Shown: positions 1 through 49,463 of the stretch, in pieces
Position numbering within the stretch: the stretch's first letter is position 1
Layout: the number at the start of each line of letters is the position of its first letter
Assembly: GCA_039621445.1 (NCBI GenBank)
Contig: CP154954.1
Coordinates: 16,770,589 to 16,834,588, forward strand
DNA: 64,000 nt
Direction: 5' to 3'
Origin: Euglena gracilis
Lineage: Eukaryota
The notes under the pieces: generated by a model
Told to the model about the DNA's origin: nothing
Seen by the model: only the letters and a program-made list of their open reading frames with translations
The model's database searches: none
Translations under genes and position numbers: made by a program

Positions 1-19
1 GTATCTTTCGCTGGTGTGA

Positions 20-864: not shown

Positions 865-1173
865 AAGGGCGGTCCTTAAGCAAATATAAAAAAACTCCGC
901 TGAGCCAGCACACTGAGTGAAAAATACACAGGAAAATGGGCGAAATTTTGGCATTTACAGTGAGAACAGGTCGACATCAGGCAAAAAAATGATTCCTGGC
1001 ACCCTTGGACCATCGTCCATCCCCCAAATCATCAAAAACTGTGTTTTTTGACTGTTCAATTTTTGTCCCCGTTCAAGTCCCAGTCTGGCCCTTAGCCGGC
1101 CCTTTGGCTGAATGGGAGGCGGTCCTTAAGGAAATAAAAAAAAAAACTTTCCTGTCCCTTAAGGACCGCCCTG
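865..1173. mobile_element. hAT-type MITE, TIR (C/A)AGGGCGGTCCTTAAG, 8-bp TSD GGCACAGC
   Basis: ggcacagc(857-864)|aagggcggtccttaag ... cttaaggaccgccctg|ggcacagc(1174-1181). Confidence 0.85.
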
Positions 1174-1319
1174 GGCACAGCACCCAAATCGCATCCTGTG
1201 CACCGATTTTCCAGGTCAGGTCCAGGACCACAATCCAAAAACGTGGATTTGTTCCTACCAGTGCTTTGAGCCAAAGGTCACCACATTGATGTACTTTTGC
1301 ACAAAACGTACCCTTACTT

Positions 1320-2930
1320 GTGAAGAATTTACTTATGACCCTCAACCAGACCTCACAGACCCTGCTGGCGTATTCTCCCTCGGTGTCCGCTGCCGCATCA
1401 TCGCCTACGTACCACGCTCTTCGACCGCGAGGAGGAGTCCCCTTCCATACCCCAAGTGAGACACCACCGACCCCGCCCGCAGCTTGGTGCGGTGCTGATG
1501 GGACGCTTCATCGCAAGCTAGGAAAACATTCTCCCACATGCGGGACTTCAAAGAGAGCATCGCCAACGTCGCCCTACCCTGAGAAACTCGATTGTTCGGT
1601 CTGGAGCTGCTTCCTGCAACGCCGGTGGCAGGCCTCCGATGTCCGCTCCAAGGAGTTCCACAACTGGTTTCGGAAGATGCTTCAATACCTGCGCTCCCAA
1701 GGGTCAGCTCATGCCCCCAAACCCCAGGTACCCATCCCCACACATCAGGCAAGCCAACAATCCATTGTTCTGGCAGACCTTTGTCCCACACCGACCACAA
1801 CCCCCGCCCCCGCAAATCCCCCCAGTTCCACCTCCAAGCAGTCAAATGAGCGATCTCAACTCGTGCCTGAACACCCCGGCGGCCATCCCCACACTGCCTC
1901 TCGGAGCCCCCATCGTCAAGGTTGTGGAGGAGGAGGTCCACACCTAAGAGCCGCACAGTACACCACAGGCACCAGGGGCCGACGACGCACCATTGCCGGG
2001 GCGGTCCGTTTTGTTTCGGAGGGTTTGCAGCCATTTCCCAAACCTCCAACCAACATCCAGCTGAACACAGCAGAGGACCCCCGTGAGGCCTCGAGCAGCC
2101 CCCCTCGTGGAGCCGGAGCCAATCTGGAGGGTGCCGAGGGGGACGCGTCCAGCCCTATCAACCGCGTTGTGATCCAAGAGGGTGCCCCGGTGGCAATGCG
2201 TAGCCCTCCCCCCTGTGCAGGTGCCGTCCCAAGTGTTGCCGTTGAGGCCTTCACCCTCATGCAAAGTGCTATGCAGAAGGATGCCCCGGAGGCCGTGTCC
2301 AGCCCTCGAAGGTGCCACCGAGGCCTTGACCAGCCCTCCCTGCGCAGGCACCATCCCGGAGGGTGCCTCACAGGTAGGAGCGCCAGAATTCAATGGGGCC
2401 CACCGATGTGTGTTGGAAAGGCCAGTGCTGGTGGACCCATGCCCGTTCCGGTGCAATTGCCCATGCCCGTGCCAGTGCCAGTGCCAGTGCCAGTGCCGGT
2501 GCGGGTGCTGGTGCAAGTCCCCGTGCCAGTCCACGTGCGGTCACCTCTAGACCAGCCAAAAATTGGACTGCAGGCTGAGCAGGGGGTGTGGAAAAAGAAC
2601 AAAAAAATATACACAACAGAAAAGGCACATCAAAATTTCACCCCTGAGCCTCAAACTGGTGAGGTTCACCGGCCGAGTGTACCCCTCCCCAGTGAATGTT
2701 CATTGATGACTTTACTTGGGAGGTCCGGGACCCCTCCTTCCATCTGCCTGACCTCCTCCGGGCCAATATCTTGGTTCATTTCTGTGGCCCAAATCGGCCA
2801 CACCCCCCCAGCCGGGGGATTTGCCCAAGCCATGATTGAAAGGGGGGCAAATTGCATACTGGGCGCTTGGCCCCCGACTTGGCTGCGCTTGTCCCAAAGG
2901 TTGGAACCCTGGCCTTGCCGTCAATTGTGA
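1320..2930 (+). CDS. Long Pro/Ser-rich ORF (536 aa) of unknown identity; possible exon or retroelement ORF relic, antisense within a putative intron
   Basis: Longest ORF in the window. GC-rich core at 1340-2550 includes a (CCAGTG)n tract giving a PV repeat. No recognisable domain; GTG start. Confidence 0.3.
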   Translation: MKNLLMTLNQTSQTLLAYSPSVSAAASSPTYHALRPRGGVPFHTPSETPPTPPAAWCGADGTLHRKLGKHSPTCGTSKRASPTSPYPEKLDCSVWSCFLQRRWQASDVRSKEFHNWFRKMLQYLRSQGSAHAPKPQVPIPTHQASQQSIVLADLCPTPTTTPAPANPPSSTSKQSNERSQLVPEHPGGHPHTASRSPHRQGCGGGGPHLRAAQYTTGTRGRRRTIAGAVRFVSEGLQPFPKPPTNIQLNTAEDPREASSSPPRGAGANLEGAEGDASSPINRVVIQEGAPVAMRSPPPCAGAVPSVAVEAFTLMQSAMQKDAPEAVSSPRRCHRGLDQPSLRRHHPGGCLTGRSARIQWGPPMCVGKASAGGPMPVPVQLPMPVPVPVPVPVPVRVLVQVPVPVHVRSPLDQPKIGLQAEQGVWKKNKKIYTTEKAHQNFTPEPQTGEVHRPSVPLPSECSLMTLLGRSGTPPSICLTSSGPISWFISVAQIGHTPPAGGFAQAMIERGANCILGAWPPTWLRLSQRLEPWPCRQL

Positions 2931-3110
2931 TGGCAAGGCCGGGAGGGCCAACTTAGGGGGCCAAGTTTGCATGTTAAGAATTTCGGCATGCACAAAATGG
3001 GCCAAAAACCTTAAAAAATGGGCGGCCAAGGTGGCAAGGGAAGGCTGAAGCCCAACTTTAGGGGGACAGGTGCACATGCAAGGAGGAGTGGAGCCAAGCG
3101 CCTGGGGCTG
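2860..3110. mobile_element. Dispersed MITE-like family (core GGCCAAGTTTGCATG..AGGAGGAG, ends GGGCGCTTGG/CCAAGCGCC); related copies at ~6205-6410, 8420-8595, 10385-10560(-), 11790-11970, 13261-13440(-)
   Basis: Shared core motifs in six places within 11 kb, in both orientations, with degenerate inverted ends. Confidence 0.65.
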
Positions 3111-4337
3111 GGTTGGGAGTGCTTGAACCCATTGGTGGGTGCAACAAAAAACAGCTGCCGTGATATCTTCACCATCAATTTGTTTTGACTGCCATTTTAA
3201 TTCCCCCTCTCAAAACTGGTCTGTCTCTCAAAATTGCTGTTGGTGGAAAAGAATCCAGCTGTTTTCAGGAAGCTCGGGTCGCTGGTTCTCCTCCCAACTC
3301 GTTCCGCAATAAACACACAATCCGACAACAAAGCCCACGCACACATAGTTCTGTCGCAGACCACATTGCAGGGGCTGCAGCGCATCGGGATGCCTGCGCA
3401 TGACGGACATCCACTCGCCATCCACTTGGGAGGCAAGGAGTGGGGCAGGGAGGGGCCCTGTGGCCCTGTGTTGCGGGTGGAAGCCGTTGGGGTTTTTGGG
3501 CCAACTGTCCCCTCTCTGGGCTTGTGGCCAAGCCGCCATATCAACATCAACGGGGCCACACCGAAACGCCTGATGGGTGGGGGGGTGGTCAGGTACCTCC
3601 AAGCCAGAATGGGGGGGGGGGTGAGGGCCCCCAGCTATTCCTAAAGTTTGCATGAAAACATTGGCCTAAAAATGTGTGCCTTGGGGAAAAATGGAAAAGT
3701 GGGGGGACACCCAGATGGGGGGGGGGGTGCAAAATATCCACACGGGCAGGCAAAAAAAAAATCACTGTATAAAACCGCACACAAGTACACACAACTGCAA
3801 AAAGGCATGCACTGACACATACTGACTTCTGGAAGAAGAAAAAACAGATTGTCAACATTCTGCTGTGACGGACTTTGGAAAAATTTGCTTCTTTGCCAAA
3901 AGAAAGTTCTTGGCTCAGGTGTGAAGGGTTCAGGGAGGTTGGACTCAAAAATAGAGTTACCCAAAAGTGGGTTTTCTCCCCCGAGGAGAAGAAAAGCTTC
4001 TGAGCCAGGCATCGAACTTTGAAACAGCAAAAATCTTTGTAAGAAAGGGGGGGGGCAAAAATGGTATTTTGAAGATTTTGGCCATTATACCTCTAAGTTT
4101 TAGCTGGAAACCCCCAAACCAGCCTTTGCTGGATTTTCGGTGGCCGGTTCCAGCTGGATGGACAAAGGCATACCATTCGCCCACTTTGATGTAGCCAGAC
4201 TGGAAAAAAATTCCAAAGGCAAAATAAAGTCTTTTCCCTGAGGGTCATGCAAACCCTCTGACCTGCAGCCTTGAGTAGTGGTCACAGGGATCCACTGTTT
4301 TTGGCACTGTTGGGCGACCGTGCCCAAAGGTTCTGTC

Positions 4338-4644
4338 CATGCTTGTGCTTACCAACCGGGGGGGGGGGGGGGAGGGGGGGGGTGGGTGCTATAGGGTGCC
4401 TGCCCCTAGCAGGCACACCCCCCCGGGGGGGGGGGGGGGGATAGGGGTCCGGGCCGGACCCAGAAAATTTTCATTGAAAATAGCCTTTACCAGGCCACCG
4501 GCGCCTTCGGTGCCGGGGTCGGAGGGGGGTGCCTGCTAGGGCAGGCACCCCCCAAAACCCTACTCCCCCCAGGGGGGGGGGGTCGGATCGGGTGCTATGG
4601 GGTGCCTGCCCCTAGCACCCACCCCCCGACTAAGCACAAGCCTG
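4338..4644. mobile_element. hAT-type MITE, TIR CA(G/T)GCTTGTGCTTA, 8-bp TSD GTTCTGTC
   Basis: gttctgtc(4330-4337)|catgcttgtgctta ... taagcacaagcctg|gttctgtc(4645-4652). Internal hairpin ccggcgccttcggtgccgg at 4498-4516. Confidence 0.9.
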
Positions 4645-4789
4645 GTTCTGTCCTGCTGATATGCTTTGAGTTGTGTAACCCATCAAAAGCCTAAATGAAA
4701 TGAGTCAGAGGATTGCTGAGGGACCCAGGGGTCAATAAAAACGGTGCTGGTTAAACTGGAAACCAAAGAATGCCCCAAATCAGAAGCGA

Positions 4790-4919
4790 GCAGGCCGCTC
4801 TCCCCGACCGCTCCCACCAAAGCAGGCTCGGTTTGAAATAGTAATAAACTTCCTTGATATATGCATTGGGTTTGGAGAGGACGGCGAGAACCCGCTTTTG
4901 GCTTTGGTGGAGGCAGCCG
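4790..4919 (-). CDS. Putative exon C of unknown gene, copy 1 (GCLHQSQKRVLAVLSKPNAYIKEVYYYFKPSLLW)
   Basis: Homologous to 47325-47432 (GCLRLNQSGVLAVL.../SYIKENYNYF). Same order and strand as exons A and B in both copies. Preceded by a T tract, but the acceptor reads CTG here versus CAG in the paralog. Confidence 0.5.
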
Positions 4920-5472
4920 CAGCAAAAAAAAAAAAGACAAACAGACAAAACGCCAACAACGAAATTTTCGGCAAATTTGGTCAAAATGTCATTTTTGATA
5001 ATGGTAGGTCTCAAGACAATGATAAAAAATCAGTTTTTGGGTGGTTTGCAGCCGAAAAAATTGTCCCCGGTGGCTTTCAGTTCTCCTCCTGGGGGGGGGG
5101 GGGTATAACCCCTGGGCCTGGGGGGCTGGAGGGCTTCCCCTTCGGCGACCTCTTCTGTGAGTTGATTTTCGATGATGGGTCGAAAATTCGGGCTTTGTCC
5201 CAAAAACAGGAAAAAAAAACCCCCTTCCAGCACCGGGCACCACTTTTTTTTTTTAAAAAACGCCTTTGGTAACTATGTGCATTCTGTACGTACACCTGCT
5301 ACAGGGCATTGAAACTAATTGACTGCCATTGACTGCCATTGAAACCGATCGACATCTGCCAAACATGATATCAATGACCAAGGAGGGGTGCATCCCCCCC
5401 AAGCTGAGCGATGGTGCATCCCCCCCAAGCTGAGCGATGTAGACCATACGTGGACACCTTAAATGTGTGGTT

Positions 5473-5815
5473 CATACCTCCCCCCCCCTTGTCGTTGACA
5501 CGCCAATGTTCCAGAAAAGTGTCGTTGACACGCCGTGTCAACGACACAGCACCTAAAAAAAAATCGACCGCACCAGTAACAATGAATGACCCCGTGAATG
5601 CATGTCCGCCACACTGTGGCCGGTGCGAATGGGGATGACATTCAAAGCCATGGCTGGAAAGAAGATTCAACCCATTGTTGAAATGTCCTGGCTGAAAGTT
5701 GTCAGAAACTGTGGTCAACGCAAAAGAAAAAAATATGTTCCAGGAAAGTGTCGTTGACACGGGGGGTGTGTCAACGACACGCCGTGTCAACGACAAGGGG
5801 GGGGGGAGGTAACTG
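5473..5815. mobile_element. MITE-like foldback element with ~30-bp inverted ends and GTCGTTGACAC/GTGTCAACGAC subterminal repeats; relatives at ~28255-28295, 29430-29720, 50600-50640
   Basis: tacctcccccccccttgtcgttgacacg ... cgtgtcaacgacaagggggggggggaggta. No clean TSD. Confidence 0.75.
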
Positions 5816-6670
5816 TGGGGGGGTTGCGCTTCAACTGGAGTCTCAACAAATGCAACAGAACAAAACGCAAATAAACAAATAAAGCCACAAAAAACACAAA
5901 GAATGGGAATTCGACAGGTATGAATTCCAAAAAAAAATTGCGCTCTGACTTCGACAAATGCAATTTGTTGGCTAAAAGAAATTCAAAAATGAAGGAAAGG
6001 CAATTGGCAAAAATAAAATAAAGTAAAGTAAAGTAAATGAAATGATATAAAGTCAGAAACTTGGTCAACGCAAAAGAAAAAAAAAAAAAAAATTCTGTCA
6101 AATTCATTTTTGCAGTTAAGGAACAAAAAAAAAAAAAAAAAAAAAAACAAAGGAAACTCAAATGGAGTTTGAGTTTGAGAATGGAGAATGAACTCATCCA
6201 TCCATCCCTTCCTGGGCGCTTGGCACGGGCCACAAATGAAGGTACGGCCCCGAGGGCAATTTGGGGGGAAAGTCGAGTGTTAAGAATTTAGGCCATGACA
6301 AATAAGCCAAAAAAGCCTAATGGGGGGACAAGGTTGCACGGCCGAAGGCCAACTTTTGGGCCAAATTTGCATGTGGAGATTATGGGGGCCAAGAGTATGG
6401 AGGGGATCCAAAGCTGTTGAAACTGACTGCAAAAGGCCACAGACACTCCAACAACAGCCCAAATAGCTTTTTCGGCACCTTTGGCCTTTTCACTTTGGCA
6501 CCTTTCGCAATCTTACATCATCCCTTCCCAGGACCCGAAGTGCTGGTGTAAACAGCAAATATCAAAAAAGCACATCCAAAAATAAGATTAGATTTGAGCA
6601 ACCAATCGAAACAGTGGACCTGGGTCTTATTGGGGGGGTTATTATTCTTATTTTGCCTTCCAATTATTTT

Positions 6671-7760
6671 GCAGAATTCTGCACAATCCACATGTTTTAA
6701 ACCCCCCTAATAAGTGCACGGGTGCGCGCATTTTAAGGACGTAGTTTCGGACCCCATGGGTGCGAAATTAGGGCAGTGCGCACTTTTTAGGGCAAAGCCA
6801 AAAATACTGACATTACCCCCACTCTTTTTCAGTTTTCCCCCAACTTTGTGATTTCGCTATGAGTCAAGTGATTATGTGTCAAATGTGTCAAATTGGGCTT
6901 GGACGATGAAAGTATTTGGAATGAGAAGGACAGTTCTGAGAATTGTGTGTGTTTTCAGACCTGAGATATGACAATGATTTCTTTGGGGGGTGCGCGCATT
7001 TTAAGGAGGTAGTTTCGGACCCTTGGGGGGTGCGCACTTATTAGGGCACTGCGCACAATTAGGGCAGTGCGCACTTATGAGGGGGTGGGGTTAGACTGAT
7101 TTGGACCAATTTGATCATTTTAGTCCCTTTCGTAAATTTAGGGAAATCACAAAAATTGATGCAATTGAGGGAATTGATGCAAAAAAACAGCCCAAAACTT
7201 AAATAACAAAAAAAAAAAATTGCAGAAAGAAAAAAAAAACCCAAAACAAAAAAAAACCCAGCTAAACCAAAAAAAAAAAGAAAAAAACAAAAAACCTCCC
7301 AAAAAAAAGACCCCGAAAAAAAAAAAGGGTGAAAGCTCCCAAACGAAGTGCAAAAAAAACAAAAAATATTAAAAAAGCACCAAAAAAAAACAGAAAAAAA
7401 TGGGGGCACCGCAAACACCTGCAGAATTCACAATCCACCATGTTTTAAACCCCCTAATAAGTGCACGGGCGCGCATTTTAAGGACGTAGTTTCGGACCCC
7501 AAGGGTGCGCACTTATTAGGGCAGTGCGCACTTTTAGGGCAAAGCCAAAATACTGACACTTTTTCACCCCCCAATCAAATTTGCTTGTTTCCTAGAAGGC
7601 GTTGAGTGTGTGCTTTCCGACCTGATATGACTTGGGGGGTGCGCACTTTTTACTTGGGGGGTGCGCATTATTAGGGCACTGCGCACAATTAGGGCAGTGC
7701 GCAGGGGTGGGTGTTAGACTGATTTGGATGATCATTTTAGTCCCTTCAAAATTTAGGGAA
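6671..7760. repeat. Two direct copies (~6671-7150 and ~7421-7760) of an element with GGGCAGTGCGCAC repeats, separated by an A-rich tract
   Basis: gcagaattc..cacaatccac..atgttttaaaccccctaataagtgcacggg at 6671 and 7421. Both copies end ...gttagactgatttgga...atcattttagtccctt...aatttagggaaatca. Confidence 0.8.
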
Positions 7761-9452
7761 ATCAAAAAAAAAAAAAACCAAAAAAAATAATAATAATAAT
7801 AATAAATATGTGCATTGTGAAAAAATCCGAAGATGGAAAAAAGGGCTGGGTAATTCCCTTTGGGTCAGTTTTGGCAGACAGCAATCTTCTAAAATGCTTT
7901 CTAGCCTTGTTCTTGTTGTCCCCTGAAAAATTATCATGCAGATTATATGCAAAGTTGTTGTTGTTGTGTGTGGTTGTTGTTGTTGTTGTTGCTGTGGTTG
8001 TTGTTGTTGTTAAAGTTATTGCAAAAACTATGCAAATTATGCGGAATTATGGAGGATTATGCCTCCCACCCCCAACCCTGCCTTAATGCTTCAATTACCC
8101 CTCCGAAACACATCGCCTCAACCATGTCCCCCCCTCGGGGGCATAACCTCCCTTAAAAGAAGCACAGGGTCCTGCAAGCGCAGTGTCCACATAAAAATGC
8201 ACCCCCCCACCGCCGGTCCACTACGAGCGCACCCGTTCTTCTATTTGTGGGTGGGTCAGGAATGGGACATCAATGCAAATTGCGGAGGACCCCGTGTGCA
8301 AGCACAATGCATTTTGTGAGGACGCTTTCTCCCGTTAGTCTCCTCCTGGCTAGTTCCAAACACACACAATTGATTGGATGAAACTGTCACACGACTGGAT
8401 TGAATGTTCCTCCACGATTGACGGCAAAGCTGGGGTGCCAACTTTAGGGGACCAAATTGCATATTAAGAATTTCAGCAGTCCAGCACAAAATTCAAAATT
8501 GGCCAAGAACATTAAAGGGGGGGGCAAGATCGCAAGTTAAGGCCGAAGGCCAACGAGTTTGCATGTAAGGAGGAGAGGCTGCCAAACGAGGGGGCAGCGG
8601 AGATACCTGCACATCAAATGCCTGGACCCTTCCACACAGATGGGCTGAAAAAAAAGCGGGTTGAGCTGCGCTTATGGGGAACTGGGGTGAGGTCAGTTCG
8701 GATTCCTGGCACTTCCAACAGCAGCTGTGCGTGTTGTGAGGGGAGTCGGTTCAGTGAACACCACAGAACACTCCCTGGCTGGCAAATCATTTTCCAATGA
8801 CTGCCGCCTTGCCAGCCCCAAACCGCATTGGCCCGCCGATCTAAGCATTGGAAAATATGAATCAGAGTGGTGTTGCCCGCACAAAGAGGAAGTACGAGTT
8901 GGAAAGATGGACCATAAAACGGAATGAGAAACCTCCCTTTTTCCCCTTCAAAAAGAAGAAGTCAAAACCACAAAAACTCATTTGAAAAAATTTGAAAAAA
9001 TTTGAAAAAAAGTTTTTGAAAAAAGACGATATGTTTAATGGGACTTTGGTTTATTGCCGAGCTGTAAAAACACAAACTTAACTAACCTTGAAACCTTTGA
9101 TGCGGTTTGATTGCTCCAGGAATGTCGCTTTGACACGGGGGCAGGGGTGCAACGGAATGGTAACAATAATGAAAACAGCAAATAACCAGGAAAGGGGTGA
9201 GTGTCAACAACATGGCGTGGACGGGATAAGGTGGAGAACTTCCAAAATTTCCACAACTGGGGATGAAACTCATGAACTGGGGTCCAGGGAGATTCAAGCT
9301 CAGTACAACCTTTATCAGGAAAGGTGGTTTCAAAAGCAGGAAGCCCCTAGCTCGCAAATCATTCCCCAGCTGGCGACCCCCAGAACCCCAGAAGGGAGGG
9401 CGGATCCACAAAAAATTGCTCAACCACCCTGGCAATTGGGGAGGGGGTCCAC

Positions 9453-10159
9453 CAGGGTTTGATATAAGGACAGGTGGGGGGGTCGGGACAATACAATTGC
9501 CCACAACCCCCGGGGGGGGGGGGGGGGCCCCCCCCCCCCCGGGGGGGGGGGGGTCGGCCACTCAGAAAAACGGCCACTTTCCAGTCACTTTAGGTCATTT
9601 TAGGCCCAAAAAAATTTTCCGGCGCCTTTGGCGCCTCGGGGTCACTCAAGCCACTTTTGCCCACTCCTGGCCGCCCCCCCCCCGGGGGGGAGGGGTCCGG
9701 GCCAAAAACCAGTCAGTCACTCTGAAAAAACCAGTCACCCACCCCCCCGGGGGGGGGTCGGTCAGTGCTTAGTGCTTAAGCAATTGTCTGGTCCGGACCC
9801 CCCCCCCGCGGACCAGGAGGGGGGGGGACACCCCCCACCTAAACAATAGCGCGGGCCAGGTGACCGAAATTCAGCCGCGCGCAAAGCGCCGAACCGAAAA
9901 ATTTTGATACCCCAAAACGACCAACAGTGCCATTTTGGTCATTTTTTGTGTAAAAATTTGCAAAAAATGCAAAAAATTTTCGGCGCAAAGTGCCGGAGGA
10001 AAAAAAATTGACCCTTCTTGGGTGTGTCCCGGGTACCCCCCCAGGGTCGGTCCAGACCCCCCTGGCAGGTGGGGGGGGTCCGGACCCCCCTGCGGGCCAG
10101 GAGGGGGGGGGGAAACCCCTGCACCTAAACTATGTACGCCCTCCTTGTATCAAATCCTG
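9453..10159. mobile_element. hAT-type MITE (outer), TIR CAGG(G/A)TTTGATA(T/C)AAGGA, 8-bp TSD GGGTCCAC
   Basis: gggtccac(9445-9452)|cagggtttgatataagga ... tccttgtatcaaatcctg|gggtccac(10160-10167). Confidence 0.9.
9490..9790. mobile_element. hAT-type MITE nested in 9453-10159; same family as 39952-40303
   Basis: gtcgggac|aatacaattgc ... ttaagcaattgtctg|gtccggac (7/8 TSD match). Interior is near-identical to 40030-40303. Confidence 0.85.
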
Positions 10160-14500: not shown

Positions 14501-15319
14501 TAAAATATCGAACGTTGACAGAAAAAAAAAATCCGTTCATCACCCTGCCGCCTGCAACAGAACCCAAGCTTTGGCCCAAGCTTGGGAGATGCTGCATCAT
14601 CAAACGTGCTTGGTCGGGAGGGATGCGCCTCCAGAGGGGTGATATATGTGCCAAAGATCCAGCTGAACAATCATCTCTAAGGTTATGACAGTCCCCTTTC
14701 TGTCAAAACAACGTTCCAGAAGCCAAAAATTTCAAGTCTGGACGATTGATGGGTGGGTATCCTCCTTTCCATCACTCTTAAGCTTTTCAGAAAGCCAGAA
14801 GATCTACCGCCACAGAGTGTGGGCCGAGAGGTGCCTTGGGCTGGTCATTCCAGTGTGGTGGAACAGCTACACAAAGCCACCTGGCATCCAGAACACACAC
14901 ACGCACGCACGCACGCACGCATGCGCGCGCACGCACTCGCACTCGCACACCATTGACACACACCAGCACAGGGAGCAACCTGCAGTGTGCACACATGCTG
15001 CTTGTCCGGGCTGCACAAGTGTCCGCTGCCCCAACCTTGTGCATTATCCATTATTTCTCAAATTATGGGCAATTTATACACTGATTTGTTTTTTTTAATT
15101 TTAATTTTTCAGCTTGAGTTTTCTGATGTGAAAAAAGAGCAGATATGGAAGCATAAACGCCTGAATGGCCAAGCCTTCACAAGGGCCCCCCAGAGGGTGG
15201 GTCGAACTGAACTGGCACTAGCTGGAAAGCCTCGCTGGAAACAAAAATACTTCAGAGTCGCAGCTGGCTGCAAAAAAAAAAATTGTTCCTGGTGGTCGCA
15301 ATAAAAAAACATAACAATG

Positions 15320-15810
<491 letters not shown>

Positions 15811-16979
15811 TGTTCTGATTGTGCAAAAAAATGTATGGTTTTGCACAATGAATCATGTTATGTGTACGTTTGGGGGGGGGGTCGTGCTGAGTGAACACCC
15901 TGCTGGAGGCGGGGTTCTCATCTACTTTTGCCTATTTTCTCTGTTTGCAATAAAACTGGGTTGAAAAAGTGACTAAAATGAGGAGAATGCAAATTCTTGT
16001 AGGAACTGGGGGGGTCAGAACTAGGGGCGAGCAACAATTGCTCCCCCCCCCTGGCAACCGTAGTACCGTTGTTTTCCTCACTTTTTGTCTTCCACGCTTG
16101 CAGGAAGGCGAAAAGCGCAACAGGACCCTCAAAAAACACGATGCAAATAAATCAAAAATAAACATAAAAAATGCAAAAAGAAACAAAAATTGCATGTAAA
16201 ATCCTTTACAGAGCTCCGGAGCTATGGAGCTCCCCCCGAAATGCAATTTCTGCTTGAGGGGCTCAATTTCAGCTTCGTCGGGGCAAATTTTTCATTTCGC
16301 ATAAGGATACGTTGGCCAAAAATTGCAAAATTGGGAAAATTGGGGGCAAAATGAGGAATTTTTCATTGTCCAAAAAAATCCATCAAAATCGAAAAAACGC
16401 TTCAAAAAAAGGAAAAAAAACACAAATTTTGTCAAAATCAAAAAACACAAAAGAAAAATGCAAAAAAAAGCATTCCCCTCCTGCACAATTGAAAACGAGC
16501 ATTGGGTGACCAACGTTGGGGTGCTTTACTTACATTCACAATTCTCAGCGGGTTATGTCCAAAAAAAAGCGTCAAATTCAAATGGCCCAGGGCAAGGTTG
16601 CACTTTGAGGTCACAGCGTATAGGGACGTCAATTTTGCAAATGCAAATAACCAATTGACAATTCTCCGGAAAAACCTGTTTTTTTTGCGACAACCTTAGA
16701 TGTAGAAAATGAAGACCTTTTCTGCATTTAAATCCCGGCCCCAATGCGTGCTTTCAACCGAATTCTTATTCACAATTAAAATTTAAACTTCATAACTGGT
16801 TGTGCATGCCAAAATTTGGCAAAATCGACAGAAAAACTTCTGGAAATTTGTGAGATACACCAAAATATTTGCAACGTGAGTACGGGTGAGGGAGTCATGT
16901 CGCGCGTTCTTTAAAGACTGGGGAGGGGGGTCCCCTGAAGCATCCAATCTCCCCCCTTTTGGGAGGCAATCCGCCTGGA

Positions 16980-18760
16980 GGTGTACCTGGTCTGACCACA
17001 TTCCGCACAAAGGGCCACTCAGTAAACCTGCCTCACCACACTATCTGCCCAACGTCGAAGACGCCTGGATAACGCCACTGCTTTGGTGCGTCTTCATCGG
17101 TCAAACAGGAAGGCAGCACTTTGCAGGCCACAGGCAGCTGTAGCGGACACCAGGAGGGGGGTGGGAGAGGTTTGGTTTTGGGGTGCCACCGAGGGCGACG
17201 GGAAGGTAATGCGGGGCCAGCCATGCCAACAAACCGGCGTCCCAGTTGCCCAGGCCAGGTGACTGGCATGGATTCACCCACCTTCCCCTTGAGAGGGTGG
17301 GATTTAAACTGACCCCCTGTAAAATTTCTGGACCAATCTTTTTTGGCACCTTGGCAGTATCCAAAAAAAAAATCATGGATCAATTCAACGCGCTTTGTGG
17401 AAAAAGCAATTTGGTGTCAAATGGCTTCTATTCAGAGGACAACAAAAAATTATAGAATTTCGGATCAGAGTTGCCCATCAGACTTTTTGGAGGAAACAGT
17501 TTGTCAAAAAAAACAACTAAAAAATTGCTGTGAAAAGCCAATAGGGAGAATCTGTCCAGTTTGGTGGGATCTCTGGGTATCCTGTGGGATTTGATGCAGG
17601 TGATGGTGTCTGAGAAAGAATCCTGTTTGGGTCACTGAACCCCCCCAAGACTGAGGTGCACTCAGGGTCAATACAGTCGGGCCGGAAAGAATTCCGATTT
17701 CAGACAATTCATTTTTGGGGGGGGAGTCGATGTCCCCGAGGAGTTGCGGAGGTCCGTAGAAACAACCTCACATTGATTTTTCCACGGACACTATCTGCAT
17801 CTGCCTGGTGGCATGGACGACCGATCTACCTTCTCTACCTTCTCCTTTCCTCCAAAAAAAAACTGACCTGCTGATTTTGCGCAATTCTGATGAGAGGCTT
17901 TTGATACCCCCCCCCCCGTCAACTTTGCGACGGACACAAACCCAAGGTATCGCAAGGCCCCACTAGTGCCTGATACTAAATGCCTGACCTTGCCTGCGGT
18001 GGCCTGACTACCGTGTCGACATGGTGGTGCCCTGTTTTATGTTGGTGTGACATAACAAGTGTGGCCCACACTGTCCATCGGATGGGGAGAGGCCAAAAGC
18101 AAGTAATCGCAGAAGGGAGCCAACGTTGCTGCCCAGAATCCTCGGAAAGGAGATTTCCCCTGCAGATTCGAGCCCTTTTCCGTGACCCTCCATGAATTTC
18201 AATTAATTTCCTTTTCAGGAAATGGGAGGATCCCTGTGTTTTTACGCTGTTGAGAAACGATTCTCTTCGTTTCACATCATCACCAAAAAGGAAAAATTAC
18301 TTTTCCTATTACAAATCACATCACCAGAAAACTTAAAAACGCATGGGGGTAGGCGAAAAAGAATTAGCCTCCTCTATAAAAAAACTGGTGACTTAATTCT
18401 GAGGACATTCGGAGGAATCGTTTCTGATTGAAGCGAGCAATGCTTCCGCGTGAGCAGCGTTCAGTGGTGGTCCTACCCATCTCGGCATGCCAACTGTAGG
18501 TTGCGTGCTGGTCCGCTTGCATGGAGGCAAAAAAAAACAGCGCACGAACGTAGAAATTGAACATCACAAGTATTAGCAAAACCTTTTTCGTAATTGCTGA
18601 TGAGTTGGGGAAAGACTTCAGATCGGGTGGCTGATGTTTCTTTGGGTGAACATATGGAAAAGAATTTTCATTTTCGCCGAAATTCTGGTGACACCACTTT
18701 TTAGAAAGTACACTGCCATCGTCCAGAATCAAATATGTCATATCCGAAGAATTAAAGCAG
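16980..18760 (-). pseudogene. Degenerate hAT-like transposase relic interrupted by MITEs (duplicated at ~20780-22570)
   Basis: Minus-strand peptides occur in hAT order: PARNLQLACRD (~18480-18510, resembles CxxHxLQLA), VDTVVRPPQARSGI (17979-18020), VVHATRQMQ (~17800), SPYWLFTAIF (~17530) and LPVACKVL (~17120). Stops and frameshifts present. Confidence 0.5.
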
Positions 18761-18814
18761 ACAACACGCCATTCCTTTCCCCGTCCAGCCTCACCCCTGT
18801 GAATGGAACCCGAA

Positions 18815-22615
<3,801 letters not shown>

Positions 22616-25480: not shown

Positions 25481-25554
25481 CAAAGAACATACCACAAACA
25501 TTCTAATAAGAATATACAATTGTTAAACTAACACACTGAACTACTTGCTGTTTG

Positions 25555-26400
25555 GGCACTGCAAATTCGGTAATGATGTCGCAAGGCAGCCAGTCCCGCC
25601 GTCGTGGTATGTGGCCTACTGCCTCTGCCAAAATGGGGAAGATCCTGGGCAAATGCGTCCAGGACCACTACGTGGAGAGCTGTGAGGTGTTCGTGGCCAA
25701 TGCCCAGATGACCCCTGCTGAACGTAATCATCCAGATGCCCACCCGGGTCCTGCGGATTACCAACGGCGCCTGCTGGGAGCACCTGCTGGTGGGGTTGTG
25801 ATGGCAGCCGTGACTCCACCGGACAGAGTTGCTGCTGCGGGATGCCCAGGTCCTGTACCGCAGAGTGCGCCACCACAATTGCCGTATGGTGCAGCAGCCT
25901 ATCATGGCCCCTGAGGACGGCCAGTGCAGATGAAGGAGTCTATCAGCAGATACCTGAGTCCCAGCAGCATCCACCCGACTGAGCCTGACTGAAATCGGTG
26001 GTCACGAGGAGCGAGCGGACGGATGTGTGGTGGAACTGCAGCAGCAGATGGCGGGGAAAGCCTGCGTGCTGTGGTACGACAACTTCTGGAAGCACCAGAT
26101 ACTGTCCAACCCTTTCAAAACCATCCACACCCAGGACTGCACTGCCATCGTGGACATCGTGCAGCCAACCCTGCTGGCCATCCCGGAGTACCCAAAGTCC
26201 CCTCTGTGGGGGGGTGAGCTGTGCTGCATCCCGCTTGTGGCCAGGCGCCTGGTGCAGTCAGTCTGGCAGACTTCGTGCTGCATCACCAACAACGCATTGT
26301 GCCTGCTGGATGAAAAAGCGTGGACGCTCCCAATCCGCAGACTCAGGACTGTTTGTTTCGTCTTTCTCCTGCTGTGTGCCGTGAACACAATGATTTTCAG
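25555..26400 (+). pseudogene. Degenerate coding-like segment (..KACVLWYDNFWKHQILSNPF..), probably a transposon ORF; may continue at ~28440-28720
   Basis: GC3-rich coding-like composition with broken frames. Bracketed by the palindrome TTTGCGCAATTGCGCAAA at ~25467 and ~26448. Confidence 0.35.
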
Positions 26401-31687: not shown

Positions 31688-32203
31688 CAGGGAATTTCTT
31701 AAGGACCCCCCGGGGGGGGGGGGGTCCAGCCTCCGGCTGGCAAAAAGGCTGCTGGCTGGATTTGAGCTGCTGGCTGGACCCCCCCCCCGGGGGGGGGGGT
31801 GGGGGGGGGGGGGGGGGTTCCGGGGCTGGAGCGGGCTGGGCTGGGCTGGGTCGAGGAAAAACAAAATTTTCTAACACATTTTGGCCATTTTCGACATTTT
31901 GATGGGTGGAGCTAGATCAAGGCTGGGGGGCTGTGATGGAGGGGCTGTGATGAGGGGGAAAAATGCATGGATAAGTGAGCTGGACAGCCCAGTTGGCTGG
32001 CCGGCCTGCGGCCGGCTGGGCCGGCCTTCGGCCGGCTGGCCCGGCCTCCGGCCGGGCTGGACCCGACTTTATTTCACTCGACCCCGGGGGGGGGGGGGGG
32101 GGCTCCCAGCCCGAATTTGGGCTGCTGGCTGGATTTGAGCTGCTGGCTGGCTGGACCCCCCCCCCCGGGGGGTAGGGTACCCTCCGGCTTAAGAAATTCC
32201 CTG
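31688..32203. mobile_element. hAT-type MITE, perfect 16-bp TIR CAGGGAATTTCTTAAG, 8-bp TSD GGCCCATT
   Basis: ggcccatt(31680-31687)|cagggaatttcttaag ... cttaagaaattccctg|ggcccatt(32204-32211). Confidence 0.92.
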
Positions 32204-32211
32204 GGCCCATT

Positions 32212-32482
32212 CAGGGAATTTCTGAATGACCCCCCTCTGGGGGGGTCCAAACGGCTGGCTGGAAACAGCGTTGACTGGAAAAAGGTGCTGGCTGGACCCC
32301 CTCATTACTTTGTTTTACTTCATTACCACTCGACCCCTGGGGGGGGGGGGGTCGAGCAGTGACAGGCTGGGAGATTCTGGCAGGCTGGCCGGCCGGCTGG
32401 CTGACTGGCAGGCTGACCGGCTGGCTAAGCCGGACCCCCCCCCCCCGGGGATAGGGTGGGGTTCAGCTTAAGAAATTCCCTG
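32212..32482. mobile_element. Second MITE with the same TIR type, abutting the previous one across a single TSD
   Basis: ggcccatt|cagggaatttctgaat ... cttaagaaattccctg|cgccattt. Confidence 0.8.
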
Positions 32483-38802: not shown

Positions 38803-39951
38803 CTGTTAGAAGAGAGGTGGGATGGGTGGCGGGAAGGCCAGGGATTAGATTGAGACCTCTGGACCTTCGGATGATCAGACGTTGGAGGCGGATCGCCTCC
38901 AACCGGGTGGACCGCCTCATTTTTGATATCAAAAAAGGTATACGATTCAAGCGTGATCAAAGAAACAATTCAACAAAAAAAGACACAACGCACACACTGG
39001 GACACGCATGTGTGCGAAGGCACAACCACTGCCAAATCGCTCGAGGAGCACATTTTGCCTCCCACGATACCCCCCAGAGGCCCATGGGATAACTTTCTCG
39101 GAATGGGCAGGATGTGTCCTAAGACCTCTCACAACTTGTGCTGCATGCGCACGTTTACAACATTTTACAACCCTTTGGGGAAAAGTAGTACTAAAAAGAA
39201 AACCCTCTGAACACGTTCATGAATAGGAGAGAATCTCATTCATAATTATTTGTGGTTGTTTGGGTCATTTGATCATTCGGCGTGACCATTTGGATTTTGA
39301 AAAATTCCCAAAATTGTGCTAATTCATGATTCGAAGGAATCCCCGGTACCTAACGAATGAGCATACACATCTTTCAATTAAGATTTTCCCAACATCTTTC
39401 ATCTTTTTTTCCTGTCTTTCTCCCCATGCTTCCAAATTTGCACTTTTTCATTATTGCGAAACAGACAATTTGGTGTTGGACACCAAAAAAAAAGATGGGA
39501 GCAAGAAAAAACACAGCTGTCCAAACCTTCAAAAATTCAGCTACCAAAAGAAGGTTGGGAAACCGTGGATTTGGGACCAATACTATTGTTAGTTGGGATT
39601 TAAAAGAATGGGCCTTGTGGGGCTGTGCTCCTCCACCAAATCCACTGTTTGCCGTCCACATTAACAAAAGAGACTGAAAGTGATCACCTGAATGGCTTCA
39701 GTTGTTCGCAAAAAAAAAATTGTTGTGCAACAGAATTTTTCCCATTTCAGGCCACGTTAGGCAATTTTAGGCCATTTTAGCTATAAGTGCCTAACTTCCA
39801 CTGCCCCCCACCCCTGAGGAGTGGGCCCGGAACCAAGGTTGCCTGTGTTTTAAATTTGTTAGGTTTGGGGAGGTATTGCAAAAACTGGAGCCTTCACTAG
39901 ACATTTATCCCCACCCCCTTCCACACCCCCCACACCCCCCACACCCCCCAC

Positions 39952-40303
39952 CATACAATTGCTTACCGACCCCCGGGGGGTCACTCCACTTTTTTAAAAA
40001 CCAGTCAGTCACTCATTTTCAAAAAACCAGCCAGTCACTACCCCCCGGGGGGGGGGGGGTCGGCCACTCAGAAAAACGGCCACTTTCCAGTCACTTTAGG
40101 CCATTTTAGGCCCAAAAAAATTTTCCGGCGCCTTCGGCGCCGGGGTCACTCAAGCCACTTTTGCCTACTCCTGGCCGACCCGCCGGGGGGGGGGGGGGGG
40201 GGGGTCGGGGCCAAAAACCAGTCAGTCACTCTGAAAAAAACCAGTCACCCACCCCCCGGGGGGGGGGGGGGGGGGGGTCGGTCAGTGCTTAAGCAATTGC
40301 CTG
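39952..40303. mobile_element. hAT-type MITE, TIR CA..CAATTGCTTA, 8-bp TSD CCCCCCAC
   Basis: ccccccac(39944-39951)|catacaattgctta ... taagcaattgcctg|ccccccac(40304-40311). Hairpin ccggcgccttcggcgccgg at 40125-40143. Confidence 0.88.
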
Positions 40304-40560
40304 CCCCCCACACACACTGGACCACCCCTCATCGATGGCCGTATGTATTGCAAAAACGGAGCCCCAGCGATGCCATAAATAGCTATTTTTCCTTTTGGAG
40401 TTCGCCATTTTTTGATTTTTCGATTTCATTTTTGCTCGGATTTCGAAAAATCTTCCGGTGGCCGCATATATTATTATTATACATATATTATATATAATAA
40501 TATATATAATATATAATATATATTATATTATATTATTATTACGGAGCCCGCACTGCCCGC

Positions 40561-41521
40561 CAAGCACCTATAATTGACCCCCAGATTTTCGGCATTTTCG
40601 GCCATTTTCGGCCATTTTCGGCCATTTTCGGTCATTTTTTTCCTATAGGTGGGGGGTAAAGCTGCCTTAAAATTCCTTCATACCAACAATGCATTTTGAT
40701 CATTCAGTCAACATGAAAGCAGTCGTGACAAGCAAACGCATCCAAGGAGGTCCGTTTGGAATGGGTGCTCAGGGATTAAAGAGGTCAAAGAGTTTTTTGT
40801 TGCAATATGCAAATGCAAGGTTTTGGGAATAGGCTTCTTTTTTCCTGCCAGAGAGACTCTTATCCACTTTGGTCTTTTTTTTTGCTGGGGGTTCTTGGGA
40901 CGCTTCATGAGAGTGGTTGGCACATGACATATTAACCACAATGGTGGATGGCAACACCAAAGATGTTGCTTTTCTCTTCAAGCCCCTAGGCATGGATGCT
41001 TTTCACAAACAACTTCCCCTCACTTATTCCAACTTGATACCCCAAGCAACATTGTTTGATGGTGGCACTGTTAGATCCCATCCACTTGTGTGCAATAAAC
41101 CTAATGCAGGAATCACACCTTCAACGGAGAAAAAAACGTTTCACATACTTTGCCTGGTTGCAGCTTGTCACCACAATTTTCTGAAATGTCGTCAAAACCA
41201 TCGGCTTTGGCCCAAATAACCCTTTCGGACGTGGTTCTTTGAGCAGCATGTGTTGCAGGGCCAGGCATAATTACAAAGAAGAGAGGCTGCACAGAGACAA
41301 GAATCAGTCACACTGAAAATTGCCTAGAAAACTGAAAGGAAAAAAAAACTCGAAAAATTTGCAAAATTTTTTCTCATTTTCGGCCATTTTTGGCCGTTTT
41401 TGGCCATTTTTGGCCATTTTCGGCCATTTTCGGGACCCCCAAGGAAAGAGCACAAAATTTCATTTTCGGCCATTTTCCGCCATTTTCGGCCATTTTTGGC
41501 CATTTTTACTATAAGTGCTTG
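40561..41521. mobile_element. Internally deleted TIR element, TIR CAAGCAC(C/T)TATA, with TTTTCGGCCA subterminal arrays and a ~650-bp coding-like core
   Basis: ctgcccgc|caagcacctata ... tataagtgcttg|ctgacccc (6/8 TSD match). 10-bp GGCCATTTTC arrays at both ends. Confidence 0.75.
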
Positions 41522-41754
41522 CTGACCCCCCTCCACCTCCCCCCCCCCGCACCCTCCCATTATCACTAACCCCCCCACCTCCCTCCCCCCCCCCTTACCA
41601 CCAACACCAGGTTTTGAATAGTGCTGAGCTCTTAATAAGCGCGCACCCACCCCGTCATTGACCCCCCCCCACATAAACCGGCCCACCCCATGGAACTCTT
41701 TTGACTGAGATGCAAGGGTTTTGTGCCTGAAACGGGGCGCTGGGGGGGGGGGTC

Positions 41755-42818: not shown

Positions 42819-43245
42819 CAGGCTTTTGCTTAAGGACCCCGGGGGGGGGGGTACTGGCTAGCCAATCGGCTAGACACTGGAAAAAGTGGACTAGCTAGAC
42901 CCCGGGGGGGGGGGGGAGTCCGGGGAACCCCCGGACTGGAAAAAAAAAATTTCTTCCGGCGCTGTGCGCCGGAGGAAAAATGAGGTTTATAACAGGTTTT
43001 GGGCTGATTTTGTTCCAAAAATTCCCAAAAATGGCCAAAAACGGGCATTTTTGGCCATTTTGGGGGGTCCCAAAAAAAATTTCGGCGCTTCGCGCCGGTC
43101 ACTGGAAAAAAAATTTTCCACTAGCTAGCCCTGCTAGCAAACCCCCCGGGGGGGGTCTGCTAGAAAACCCACTAGCCAAATTTGGACTAGCTGCAGTCCA
43201 GCCCCCCCCCCGGGGGGGTACTGCAATCCCTTAAGCAAAAGCCTG
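42819..43245. mobile_element. hAT-type MITE, perfect 17-bp TIR CAGGCTTTTGCTTAAGG, 8-bp TSD GTAGGGAT
   Basis: gtagggat(42811-42818)|caggcttttgcttaagg ... ccttaagcaaaagcctg|gtagggat(43246-43253). Confidence 0.95.
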
Positions 43246-43636
43246 GTAGGGATGCCCCCCCCCCTTCTCGGGCGCAGTTGCGCCCGTTTTGGCCCCACAA
43301 TCGCGCGCATTTGCGCACGCTTTGACGGTAAGTTCAGGCGCAACTGAGCGCGATCCGACCCCTCCTGTGTGGCGTGCGCCTCGGCGCTGAGGACCCCAGA
43401 ACGAGCGGTGACACTGAGAGAACCAATGGGGACATGCAGTCTTCACCACCAACCCCCCGGGAGCTGCAGAACAACAAGTCGGCCGCCGAAAAACTGCGGA
43501 ACACACGCCAGGCAACAGGACCTTGAGCCCTCCACCGCCCGTGTTGGAGACCCCGAACCAGCCGAACCAGAGGGAAAAACACCCAGCACCGAATCGCGCG
43601 CACCTGCGCCTGTGGACGTAGACACTCCGTGCGCAC

Positions 43637-43946
43637 CAGGGGCACGGAGTTTTTTTTTAAAGACCGGGGGGGGTCCCCCCACCACCCATCCCCTGGGGGG
43701 GGGAACCACAAAAAAATGGCCGAAAAATCGCGAAAAGTGCTAAAAATAACACTTTTCGGCGCCTTCGGCGCCGAAAAGTGTATCCCACCCCCCCCCCCCC
43801 CCCGGAGGGGGGGGGACCCCCCCCCCCCCCGCGGGGGGGGGGGGGCGGGCCAACCCCCCCCCCCCACCGGGGGGGGGGGGGGGGCTCGGCCGGACCCACC
43901 CACCCTACCCCCCCCCAGGGGTCCACAACTTAAAAAAAAACACCTG
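43637..43946. mobile_element. hAT-type MITE, 8-bp TSD GTGCGCAC
   Basis: gtgcgcac(43629-43636)|cagg...tttttttttaaag ... cttaaaaaaaaacacctg|gtgcgcac(43947-43954). Perfect 15-bp hairpin at 43749-43781. Confidence 0.85.
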
Positions 43947-46900: not shown

Positions 46901-47324
46901 CCTTTTGCTGCCCTTCCCTTGGGGCTTCCTGTTGTGGGTTTGGTGGTGTGTGGTGTGATAGACGGCGCTGATTGTTATTCTTTCTACCCGGGCACCCTCA
47001 CCCTCACCTGCTTGGTTCCCCACCAGATGCACAACTCGACGATGAAGCCCACGCGCATCGCTTCGTCATGTACCGCATTGGGCGTGCACGACGGACGTCA
47101 GCTTGCCACGGAGAGGCAAGAAGGGGCAAGAGGCCGCTATCTGCACTGGCAACTGTTAGGGGTTTAGGTATGCAGTCCTGAGGACCCCCCCCTCAAAGAT
47201 GCGAAGTCACAGGTTGGACTAAGATTGATTATTCTTGGCTCTCACTTTGTGGGTCTCTAGGCAACTTTCTGTGACCGAGAACTGCCTCAGAATGGAGGCG
47301 TCATGTGCAGCATTGCAACCGCTG

Positions 47325-47432
47325 CCAGACAAGAACAGGCTCCGACGAAATAGTTATAGTTTTCCTTGATATATGAAGCAGGGTTGAGGGAGGACAGCGA
47401 GGACCCCGCTTTGGTTGAGACGGAGGCAGCCA
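47325..47432 (-). pseudogene. Exon C paralog (copy 2), +1 frameshift relative to copy 1
   Basis: Acceptor tctttgcgtttgcag|tggctgcctcc. Shares catatatcaaggaa with 4851-4864. Confidence 0.5.
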
Positions 47433-48230
47433 CTGCAAACGCAAAGACCCCCTGTGCTCGTTGAACTGGAACCAAGCAAAGAATACTTCAAAAATCGCTG
47501 ACCCAGGCCAACAAATTCCTTGAGTGCAATTCTGTGCCGTTTTTTTCGGGGGTCAAGAAGTTCTGGGTAGTTTCTCTTGCAAAAATAACCACAGTTGGTG
47601 TCGGCTCAACCCCACCCTCCCCCATCTTTCGGGGGGGTGGTCAACAAGGCGTTCCCGTACAGCCCTGCATCTGAGTTTTGGTGCAAATTGCCAGTTGTCC
47701 CCCCACTCATTGTCATTGATCCAAAACGAAAGCAACTGAGCAACAGAGCAAAAGGCGTGGCTTTCCACTTTCGAATGCAAGTCAATCAACCTTGGAAAAG
47801 AGCGATGGTCACGAGGGGTGTTCGGACCCCGGGGGGGGGGGGTCCTGCGAGCCGGCTGGAAAAAGGTGCTGGTTGGACCCCCCCTAAGGGGAGAGGTCCG
47901 GGGGGGGGGGGGGTCTTGCCAGCTGGGAGGCCCCGGAGGGTTCCCAAAAACTGCCCAAAAAGCCCAAATCCAGCTGGGTTGGCTTTTCAAATTTGGGTGT
48001 TTCAGCCAAAATTTGGAGGTGGACACCCAAAGACCATCCAAACCGTCATTTTGGGCCATTTTTGACCCCTTTTCCAAAATTTTCGGTGCTTTACACCGAA
48101 AAATTATCGGCCCAGCCCGCCTTCTCCGGGCTGAACTCAACTCAACTTCAGCCGACACCGGGGGGAGTCCGCAACCCGGGCTGGCTGGAAAAAGGATGCT
48201 GGCTGGCGGGGGGGAGGTCCAGCCAGCCAG

Positions 48231-49463
48231 CAGGCATTATTATTTTTTAAGGCGCCTTAAAAAACCTTAAAAAACCTTAAAAATTTTTTTGCCAAAATGC
48301 CTTAAAAAACCTTAAAAACCCTTAAAAAACCTTAAAAAACTCACCCCGGGGAAGTTTTTCTTCCCCGTGATGACCTTAAAAAACCTTAAAAATTTTCCCT
48401 GGGAATTTTTTTTCTTGGAAGGTGTGAAAAATGGGGGTTTGAGGGAGTTTAATGGCCATTTTTTGAGGAAAAAGTTCTAAAGTAATTTTTTGTCATCAAA
48501 AAGTGACGTTTTTAAATTTTTCCAGACTTTTTTTTTGTTGAGTTTTTTTTATTTAAAAAAAACACATATTTTTAAAAAACTTGTTTTCTTTTAAAAAATT
48601 TATTTATAAAAAACTTGTTTTTTTAAAAAAAAGTTTTTTTAAAAAATATGCTTTTAAAAAAAACATTTTTTGTTTCAAAAAAAACAAGCAGTCAACCTTG
48701 GCAAGCACCTATGGTCAAGCCGCAAAATTTCCCCATTTGAGGCCATTTTAGGCCATTTAAGGCCAACAGGCAAGCAAATGTCCTGAATAGGGTCAGAAAT
48801 TTAAAGTAATTGCAATGAAAAAAAATGGATGGTTTCGAGTTTCGAGTTTCGAGGTGACCCACTCTGTATCCCATGCAACAAGGTTTTGAGCAATGTGTGG
48901 CGCACTGCATGGGCACGCATTTGGTATTGCTCACGTGAAAAAGTTGGATTATTGTGTCAGTGTTCATGAGGCTATCCGGTGTGGGTGCACGGGTCAGGGC
49001 GGTCCATCAGGGACAGGATTTTTTTTTTAGTTAACTGCCCCTTAAGGACTGCCCTTCCAGGGCAGTTTTGGACCCGAAATAATTTTTCCAGCGCCTTCGG
49101 CGCCGGGTGTTTTTTTTGACCCATTTTGGGACCCATATGCAGGAACCCATAGCTAAAATGGCCTAAAATTCCTAAAATGCCTAGAATGGCCTAAAATTCC
49201 TAAAATGCCTAAAATGGCAATAACTGTCCCTCGTGGACCGCCCTGATCCCATGCTTCGCCCGAGGCTTCTTCCTTGGGCGTTCCGAAGCCACAGGAGTCT
49301 GAAGCCATCGGGCCATCTTCGGGGTCTGAGATTTTACCTGAGGAAAAAAATGCCTTAAAAAACCTTAAAATTTTTTAAAATTCCTCAAAAAAACCTTAAA
49401 AAACCTTAAAAAAACGCCTTAAATTTTTTTGAGAAATCTCGCCTTAAAAAAAAATAATGCCTG
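48231..49463. mobile_element. TIR element CAGGCATTATT..TTTTTTAAGGC with CCTTAAAAAA subterminal arrays; contains nested MITE 48995-49245 and sits inside another element (~47813-49502)
   Basis: ccagccag|caggcattatt ... aataatgcctg|gcagccag (7/8 TSD match). Inner element cagggcggtcca ... tggaccgccctg. Confidence 0.85.

Follow-up and report, generated by a model that had tools for sequence, protein, structure and literature searches.

Are the short elements with inverted CAG...CTG ends and 8-bp flanking repeats that crowd a single stretch of DNA ordinary transposons, and could such elements also be a source of the nonconventional (NC) introns of euglenids, whose ends carry the same triplets? The question is raised by 64,000 nucleotides of contig CP154954.1 (positions 16,770,589 to 16,834,588, hereafter the window), which contain a swarm of approximately twelve MITEs, miniature transposable elements bounded by inverted repeats, with 8-bp target-site duplications (TSDs). 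Our analysis indicates that the swarm very probably consists of real MITEs with 8-bp TSDs, that is, of ordinary transposon biology, most likely belonging to the hAT superfamily. The link to NC introns is put forward tentatively; it is well-founded and sharply testable, and the literature strengthened the case for it.

Inverted ends, 8-bp duplications and shared words of the elements

Ten sites had been listed in a sequence-only reading of the window as CAG...CTG-type elements with 8-bp TSDs, and all ten starts proved to be true element termini with inverted repeats (Table 1; elements are named by their first position). The TSD copies matched exactly in seven of the ten (865, 4338, 9453, 31688, 39952, 42819 and 43637), at 7/8 positions in two and at 6/8 in one. 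Both end triplets were intact (CAG..CTG) in five of the listed elements, while the remaining five carried AAG, CAT, AAT, CAT or CAA at one or both ends; over the eleven elements tallied, CAG and CTG were both intact in six. In the 42819 and 39952 elements the TSD repeat did not extend past 8 bp, and in several others one flanking base also matched, which makes the register ambiguous by one base; every one of them is compatible with a length of 8. The elements measured 251-1233 bp and were short, non-coding, bounded by inverted repeats and flanked by TSDs, as MITEs are. Two copies look recent, because their ends and TSDs are perfect. The 43637 element was invisible to an ungapped inverted-repeat search owing to an indel.

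Insertions of elements into and beside one another were also observed. The 9490 element lies within the 9453 element, and two related elements stand in tandem at 31688-32482, where the spacer is exactly one 8-bp TSD copy and the right-hand element has a decayed flank. In this pair, the younger element appears to have landed on the TSD of its older neighbour.

The arrangement clearly exceeded chance expectation. A strict scan of the window, which required CA..TG ends, an inverted repeat of at least 10/12 and a TSD of at least 7/8 and admitted no low-complexity sequence, returned 5 hits; across 30 second-order Markov sequences the hits averaged 0.4 and never exceeded 2. Similarly, the end motif CAGGNNNTTNCTTAAG with at most 2 mismatches had 19 matches in place of the 5.87 ± 2.35 expected, and none of 100 shuffles reached 19. 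CAG..CTG stems sought without a TSD were at chance level in the window outside microsatellites. A scan over TSD lengths was not used, because an AT microsatellite and TTGCGCAA palindromes swamped it.

The element interiors had been called mostly unrelated. This description held at the BLAST level, but the elements have a common terminal consensus and short internal words in common. Self-comparison revealed a single interior similarity between elements (9535-9790 versus 40041-40303, 88.7%); interior sequence sorted the approximately twelve elements into at least seven groups, and two families had two copies each in the window. The terminal consensus over 24 ends was CAGG-N6-CTTAAGG, in full CAGG(C/G)ATTT(G)CTTAAGGACC, in which C stands first in 22 ends, A second in all 24, G third in 19 and G fourth in 21; the consensus often continues into GACCCC and a palindrome made of a C-run and a G-run. 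We know of no description of the CTTAAGG block or of such C-run/G-run palindromes for hAT ends. Among the ten elements tallied, the word AATGGCC occurred 21 times in six, approximately 11-fold over the rest of the window, and GACCCCC occurred 28 times in eight. Palindromes with a C-run followed by a G-run numbered 14, compared with one in the reverse order, and 13 of the 14 lay inside elements, the exception being 24628-24640. The shared termini and internal words suggest that one transposase, or a related set encoded elsewhere, moves all of the elements. This pattern is the one expected of non-autonomous elements that retain only the binding sites of a common transposase. Insertion of these cut-and-paste elements duplicated 8 bp of target, and on this mechanism a single transposase or related transposases would mobilise all families.

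Lone ends fitting the shared terminal motif, with no recognisable partner, were found at 49041-49056, 49487-49502 and 51967-51982, and are probably broken copies. A search of metagenomes with the end pattern gave eight loci (L001-L008), none of which had a partner end or a matching TSD; they were rejected as element copies and regarded as chance matches. The same search of viral contigs found none. About half of the sampled words from 1-10000 occurred in every same-organism sequencing run, a measure of word sharing only and the sole hint of copy number.

The ten TSDs revealed a target preference. Seven of them had G at position 1 (p=0.0034) and seven had C at position 8 (p=0.0032); A stood at position 7 in six (p=0.03) and T at position 2 in five (p=0.058), giving the column readout G, G/T, C/G, C, C, n, A, C. 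Insertion targets thus lean towards G(T)nnnn(A)C, and the TSDs GTGCGCAC and GTCCGGAC are perfect palindromes.

Inverted ends of hAT elements are short and begin (C/T)A(G/A), CAGG(G) being the classic start of Ac-type ends, and the hAT transposase unites a hAT dimerisation domain with a BED finger and with a DDE core that is RNase-H-like. The window elements likewise have 8-bp TSDs and short ends starting (C/T)A(G/A). We place them in hAT as the most likely superfamily, going by the length of the TSD (8 bp), the short ends of CAG type and the bias in target sequence. They resemble known hAT MITEs (Ac/Ds of maize, Hermes, hobo and miniatures) in the 8-bp TSD and short CAG-starting inverted ends, in a target bias that may be of the nTnnnnAn / GTnnnnAC kind, and in varied interiors with common subterminal words and nested or neighbouring insertions; they differ in having no linked transposase and a weak T at TSD position 2. 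The earlier statement that hAT elements make 8-bp TSDs is borne out by Hermes, for which the available part of PMC2803484 reports 8-bp TSDs with the consensus nTnnnnAn and many listed targets reading GTnnnnAC.

Several observations weigh against the hAT assignment. No transposase was found in the frames of the window that were scanned, which leaves TSD length, end sequence and target bias as the basis for the superfamily. The Pfam scan took in 233 frames of at least 90 aa, with no family at the cut-off and four matches below it only, and 299 of the 488 frames of 50-89 aa, both element clusters covered, with no family found; neither a BED-finger nor a hAT-dimerisation transposase domain was found in the frames scanned. 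A small exon could be missed among the other 189 short frames, which comprise those at 19.8-31.2 kb, those past 51.7 kb and one more. T was present at TSD position 2 in only five of ten. P elements fit the TSD, ends and target about as well as hAT does. We take the copies here to be plain insertions in repeat-rich DNA of a large eukaryotic genome, in a region without recognisable genes.

Table 1. Coordinates, flanking duplications and end triplets of the MITEs and of the neighbouring retroelement fragment
Feature	Position	Strand	Length	TSD	Ends	Remarks
MITE	865-1173		309 bp	GGCACAGC at 857-864 and 1174-1181	AAG..CTG	terminal inverted repeat CAGGGCGGTCCTTAAG
MITE	4338-4644		307 bp	GTTCTGTC, exact	CAT..CTG	
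MITE	9453-10159		707 bp	GGGTCCAC, exact	CAG..CTG	hosts nested insertion
MITE	9490-9790		301 bp	GTCGGGAC/GTCCGGAC (7/8)	AAT..CTG	nested in 9453 element; family of 39952 element
MITE	31688-32203		516 bp	GGCCCATT, exact	CAG..CTG	perfect 16-nt inverted repeat; looks young
Related MITE, not in the earlier list	32212-32482		271 bp	right flank CGCCATTT (5/8)		directly after right TSD copy of 31688 element
MITE	39952-40303		352 bp	CCCCCCAC, exact	CAT..CTG	
Older MITE	40561-41521		961 bp	CTGCCCGC/CTGACCCC (6/8)	CAA..TTG	internal ATTTTCGGCC arrays
MITE	42819-43245		427 bp	GTAGGGAT, exact	CAG..CTG	perfect 17-nt inverted repeat
MITE	43637-43946		310 bp	GTGCGCAC, exact, palindromic	CAG..CTG	inverted repeat with indel
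MITE, A+T-rich	48231-49463		1233 bp	CCAGCCAG/GCAGCCAG (7/8)	CAG..CTG	
Copy, not in the earlier list	48995-49245		251 bp	no matching TSD		inside 48231 element; ends of 865 element (CAGGGCGGTCC, 11/11)
Reverse-transcriptase-like retroelement fragment	1342-1784	+				three frames, at least 2 frameshifts (tblastn); outside the swarm

Element geometry and the nonconventional introns of euglenids

The geometry of the elements invites comparison with NC introns, and what had been stated about these introns agrees with the published record. The available parts of PMC4770533, PMC11282704 and PMC12501133 describe CAG at +4..+6 together with CTG at -8..-6, and the first two papers present these as the most conserved NC-intron features. 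The sum on which the comparison turns, 3 nt before CAG plus 5 nt after CTG equalling one 8-bp TSD, is arithmetically sound, and both spacers have been tested by knock-in (PMC12501133, in the portion available). According to the same portion, single changes of CAG or CTG abolished splicing, the 3-nt spacer before CAG tolerated neither +1 nor -1, and the 5-nt spacer after CTG tolerated +1, with -1 weakening splicing; synthetic sequences of 50 bp that obeyed these rules and had a purine first in the downstream exon were spliced. In E. agilis, it reports that 71.8% of 649,158 introns were NC and that direct repeats lay at the junctions of 84.4% of introns. Under the published junction rules, Y stands at position -1 of exon and intron alike, R at position +1 of both, and C at exon +3. 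In some introns +2/+3 pair with -4/-5 (PMC3935182).

The idea of a transposon origin also predates this analysis, as the sequence-only reading had said. A MITE source has been in print since 2014 (PMC3935182), at a time when no transposable element was known in euglenids (PMC3935182); MITE origin together with TSD-like repeats was proposed in PMC3935182 and PMC11282704, and the MITE origin was repeated in 2024 and 2025 (PMC11282704 and PMC12501133, both as far as their available text goes). In the literature examined, mostly outside subscription journals, no paper linked NC introns with hAT or with a TSD of 8 bp, and the NC-intron papers among it named no transposon family or superfamily as the source. 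The word "hAT" is absent from the texts of PMC12501133, PMC11282704 and PMC11170887, and the sole word-start match to it in PMC12621601 is an entry in the reference list.

Given a euglenid host, these MITE families or relatives of theirs may be the DNA source of its NC introns; we hold this to be possible and stop short of calling it probable. The proposal adds to the explanation as hAT MITEs and does not exclude it. The cuts of the NC machinery would fall 3 nt ahead of CAG and 5 nt past CTG, that is, between TSD positions 5 and 6, and an intragenic insertion, together with one TSD copy, would leave the RNA without a scar. By the published code, an element with a CAG start, a CTG end and two 8-bp TSD copies would be removed with exactly one TSD copy. 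The resemblance to euglenid NC introns (Euglena gracilis, E. agilis) covers CAG...CTG ends that may pair, the excised piece, which would correspond to a window element plus one TSD copy, the 8-nt direct repeats at a new intron, and the C at exon +3, which corresponds to the C at TSD position 8 here.

Several lines of evidence favour this proposal. The 3-nt/5-nt geometry is published and experimentally tested, and MITE origin and TSD-like repeats had already been proposed, as cited above. Intron 4 of gapC in E. agilis ACOI 323 is strain-specific and recently gained, and has 8-nt direct repeats that are longer than those of other introns (PMC4770533, available part). One intron of L. spirogyroides has nine possible positions (PMC3935182), which we read as an 8-nt repeat. 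The junction repeats at most E. agilis introns point the same way. The published junction rules would follow if one TSD, present twice, were cut between its positions 5 and 6, with exon +3 falling on TSD position 8, which is C in 7/10 here, and a palindromic target would allow +2/+3 to pair with -4/-5 as in some introns. In RNA folds, the end triplets were fully paired in six of eleven elements, one of them with CAA/TTG. In addition, the organism-labelled relatives of the retroelement fragment at 1342-1784 all come from the euglenid Rhabdomonas costata.

Other evidence speaks against it. No copy in the window lies in recognisable coding sequence, and within the frames scanned with Pfam none was recognised around the elements. 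We excised each element in silico together with one TSD copy and measured the longest frame spanning the junction; these frames were 85-252 codons long and so not unusually long, since at random positions the median was 136 and the 95th percentile 268. Nothing suggests that the elements lie in coding exons. Five of the ten listed copies carry a mutation in an end triplet, a change that blocks splicing according to the published code, and unlike NC introns the elements are known here from DNA alone. TSD position 6 was a purine in five of ten, and Y|R at 5|6 was found in three of ten, approximately the background level; this is expected of copies outside genes and lends no support. Whatever the host, transposons of this kind would be expected to show the G at position 1 and the C at position 8, so that these bases carry no information on the taxon. 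Finally, the authors who described the 8-nt gapC repeat ascribed it to double-strand-break repair (PMC4770533, available part). Read through the published code, only the 31688 element (in either direction), the 32212 element (minus) and the 42819 element (plus) are predicted to splice if transcribed in Euglena.

Introner elements of Micromonas, Aureococcus and others, MITE-like transposons from which spliceosomal introns arise, offer a parallel, as they too have inverted ends and a TSD that enables scar-free removal from RNA. They differ in relying on the spliceosome, with GT/GC-AG sites, and in Micromonas their TSDs are 3 nt long (PMC11282704, available part), whereas the elements here have an 8-bp TSD and the machinery proposed for them is that of NC introns.

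Other superfamilies and chance

A different superfamily with 8-bp TSDs, P or Merlin, could account for the same elements, and we consider this unlikely. In P elements the TSD is 8 bp long, the ends are CA.. and the target, GGCCAGAC, is GC-rich, and the TSD columns of the window resemble that target; against both P and Merlin stands the CAGG(G) start, the classic beginning of Ac-type hAT ends. Merlin elements with 8-bp TSDs have been reported from Euglena gracilis (PMC8101967), and so have the TSD length of the window elements and are on record from a euglenid. However, Merlin ends have a conserved terminal 5'-GG and the reported copies carry a DDE transposase (PMC8101967), whereas 22 of the 24 ends here start with C, all 24 have A at position 2, and no gene is present. 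A terminal 5'-GG was not found in the window elements, in which CA/TG belong to the inverted repeat and not to the direct repeat. We prefer the assignment to hAT.

It is extremely improbable that the pairs arose as inverted repeats by chance, or as artefacts of assembly, in DNA of low complexity: homopolymer runs and palindromes are abundant in the window and the AT microsatellite near 55.2 kb gave several spurious pairs, but the controls fell far short of the observations (0.4 versus 5, and 5.9 versus 19), seven exact 8-bp flanks consist of complex sequence, and two families have two copies each within the window.

Surroundings of the elements and meaning for intron origin

The retroelement fragment beside the 865 element lies in a 546-codon open frame (1290-2927, +). 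A word-based protein search with this frame found nothing, while a full HMMER scan returned 19 relatives, all at residues 84-207, and a profile search raised the family to 66 proteins. Reverse-transcriptase matches below the Pfam cut-off were present in one of 19 and in seven of ten relatives tested, and the relatives carry an IDD motif. They reach 1245 aa, with 400-940 extra N-terminal residues that match nothing in the window, and the fragment is for this reason taken as a truncated, decayed copy. Of approximately 77 distinct relatives, three proteins have organism labels, all Rhabdomonas costata, and the rest come from metagenome contigs; there was no named plant, animal or fungal relative among them, despite well-sampled collections. 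This is the sole taxon clue in the window, a genuine though modest one, which makes a euglenid host fairly probable and falls short of proof. The remainder of the frame (1785-2927) had no relatives, and its G+C was flat over the three codon positions. We rejected the possibility that the 865 element interrupts this retroelement, since the profile match did not extend across the excised junction and the long relatives matched nothing upstream.

Two RNA-like matches fall inside elements. On the minus strand of the 42819 element, 43004-43082 gave a sub-threshold match to the 3' half of U4 snRNA (24.3 bits versus a gathering score of 46), which includes a AAUUUUUGG stretch resembling an Sm site; it is probably a chance product of the element words AAAATGGCC / GGCCATTTT. 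In the 43637 element, ARAGORN called an 80-nt tRNA-Gly(CCC) with long C/G runs at 43796-43875 (-); Rfam gave no tRNA, and the call is most likely spurious. Across the window, Rfam returned nothing at the gathering score and weak noise at E<=1. A word-based protein search with the frame 39901-40494 also found nothing.

Over the whole window, observed/expected dinucleotide ratios were 0.58 for CpG, 0.46 for TpA, 1.5 for AA/TT and 1.3-1.4 for GG/CC, and runs of at least seven bases numbered 96 for G and 60 for C. The E. gracilis genome measures 2.37 Gb and is 58.8% repeats, one third of them unclassified (PMC11252322), with heavy cytosine methylation (PMC12455990); the composition of the window is compatible with these published figures. 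Other repeats were also observed. A tandem segmental duplication of approximately 3.9 kb (14885-18814 and 18815-22615) had 97.7% identity over 2.7 kb, with long arrays of (TTG)n and of (CTG)n in both copies. At 61461-62831, approximately 344 copies of CCAA form a (CCAA)n array of 1.37 kb, which has related 4-base arrays on its flanks and gives rise to the strong skew towards A over T with which the window ends. Inverted pairs of the palindromic word TTGCGCAA / ATGCGCAAATAA were seen at 25476-26456 and 55690-56870, which may be another repeat family; one pair brackets the frame 25958-26407, which has a third-position G+C of 0.74, no relatives in Pfam and no usable Atlas hit.

Taken alone, the window is ordinary transposon biology. 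Its wider interest lies in a 30-year-old question, namely what gave rise to the NC introns of euglenids and what sets the places of their cuts. In a euglenid host, these families would be concrete candidate sources of NC introns. The elements might even be living members of the transposon families that seeded hundreds of thousands of NC introns in such a host, a suggestion we make with reserve. The NC splicing code would then act as a ruler matched to the 8-bp TSD, and the junction rules would be the trace left by the palindromic target of the transposase, sifted by the requirement that the first exon base be a purine. The identity 3+5=8 sharpens the origin hypothesis into predictions for public genomes and RNA data: if it is true, junction repeats would have a limit or mode at 8, young introns would fall into families, and the cuts would lie at fixed offsets.

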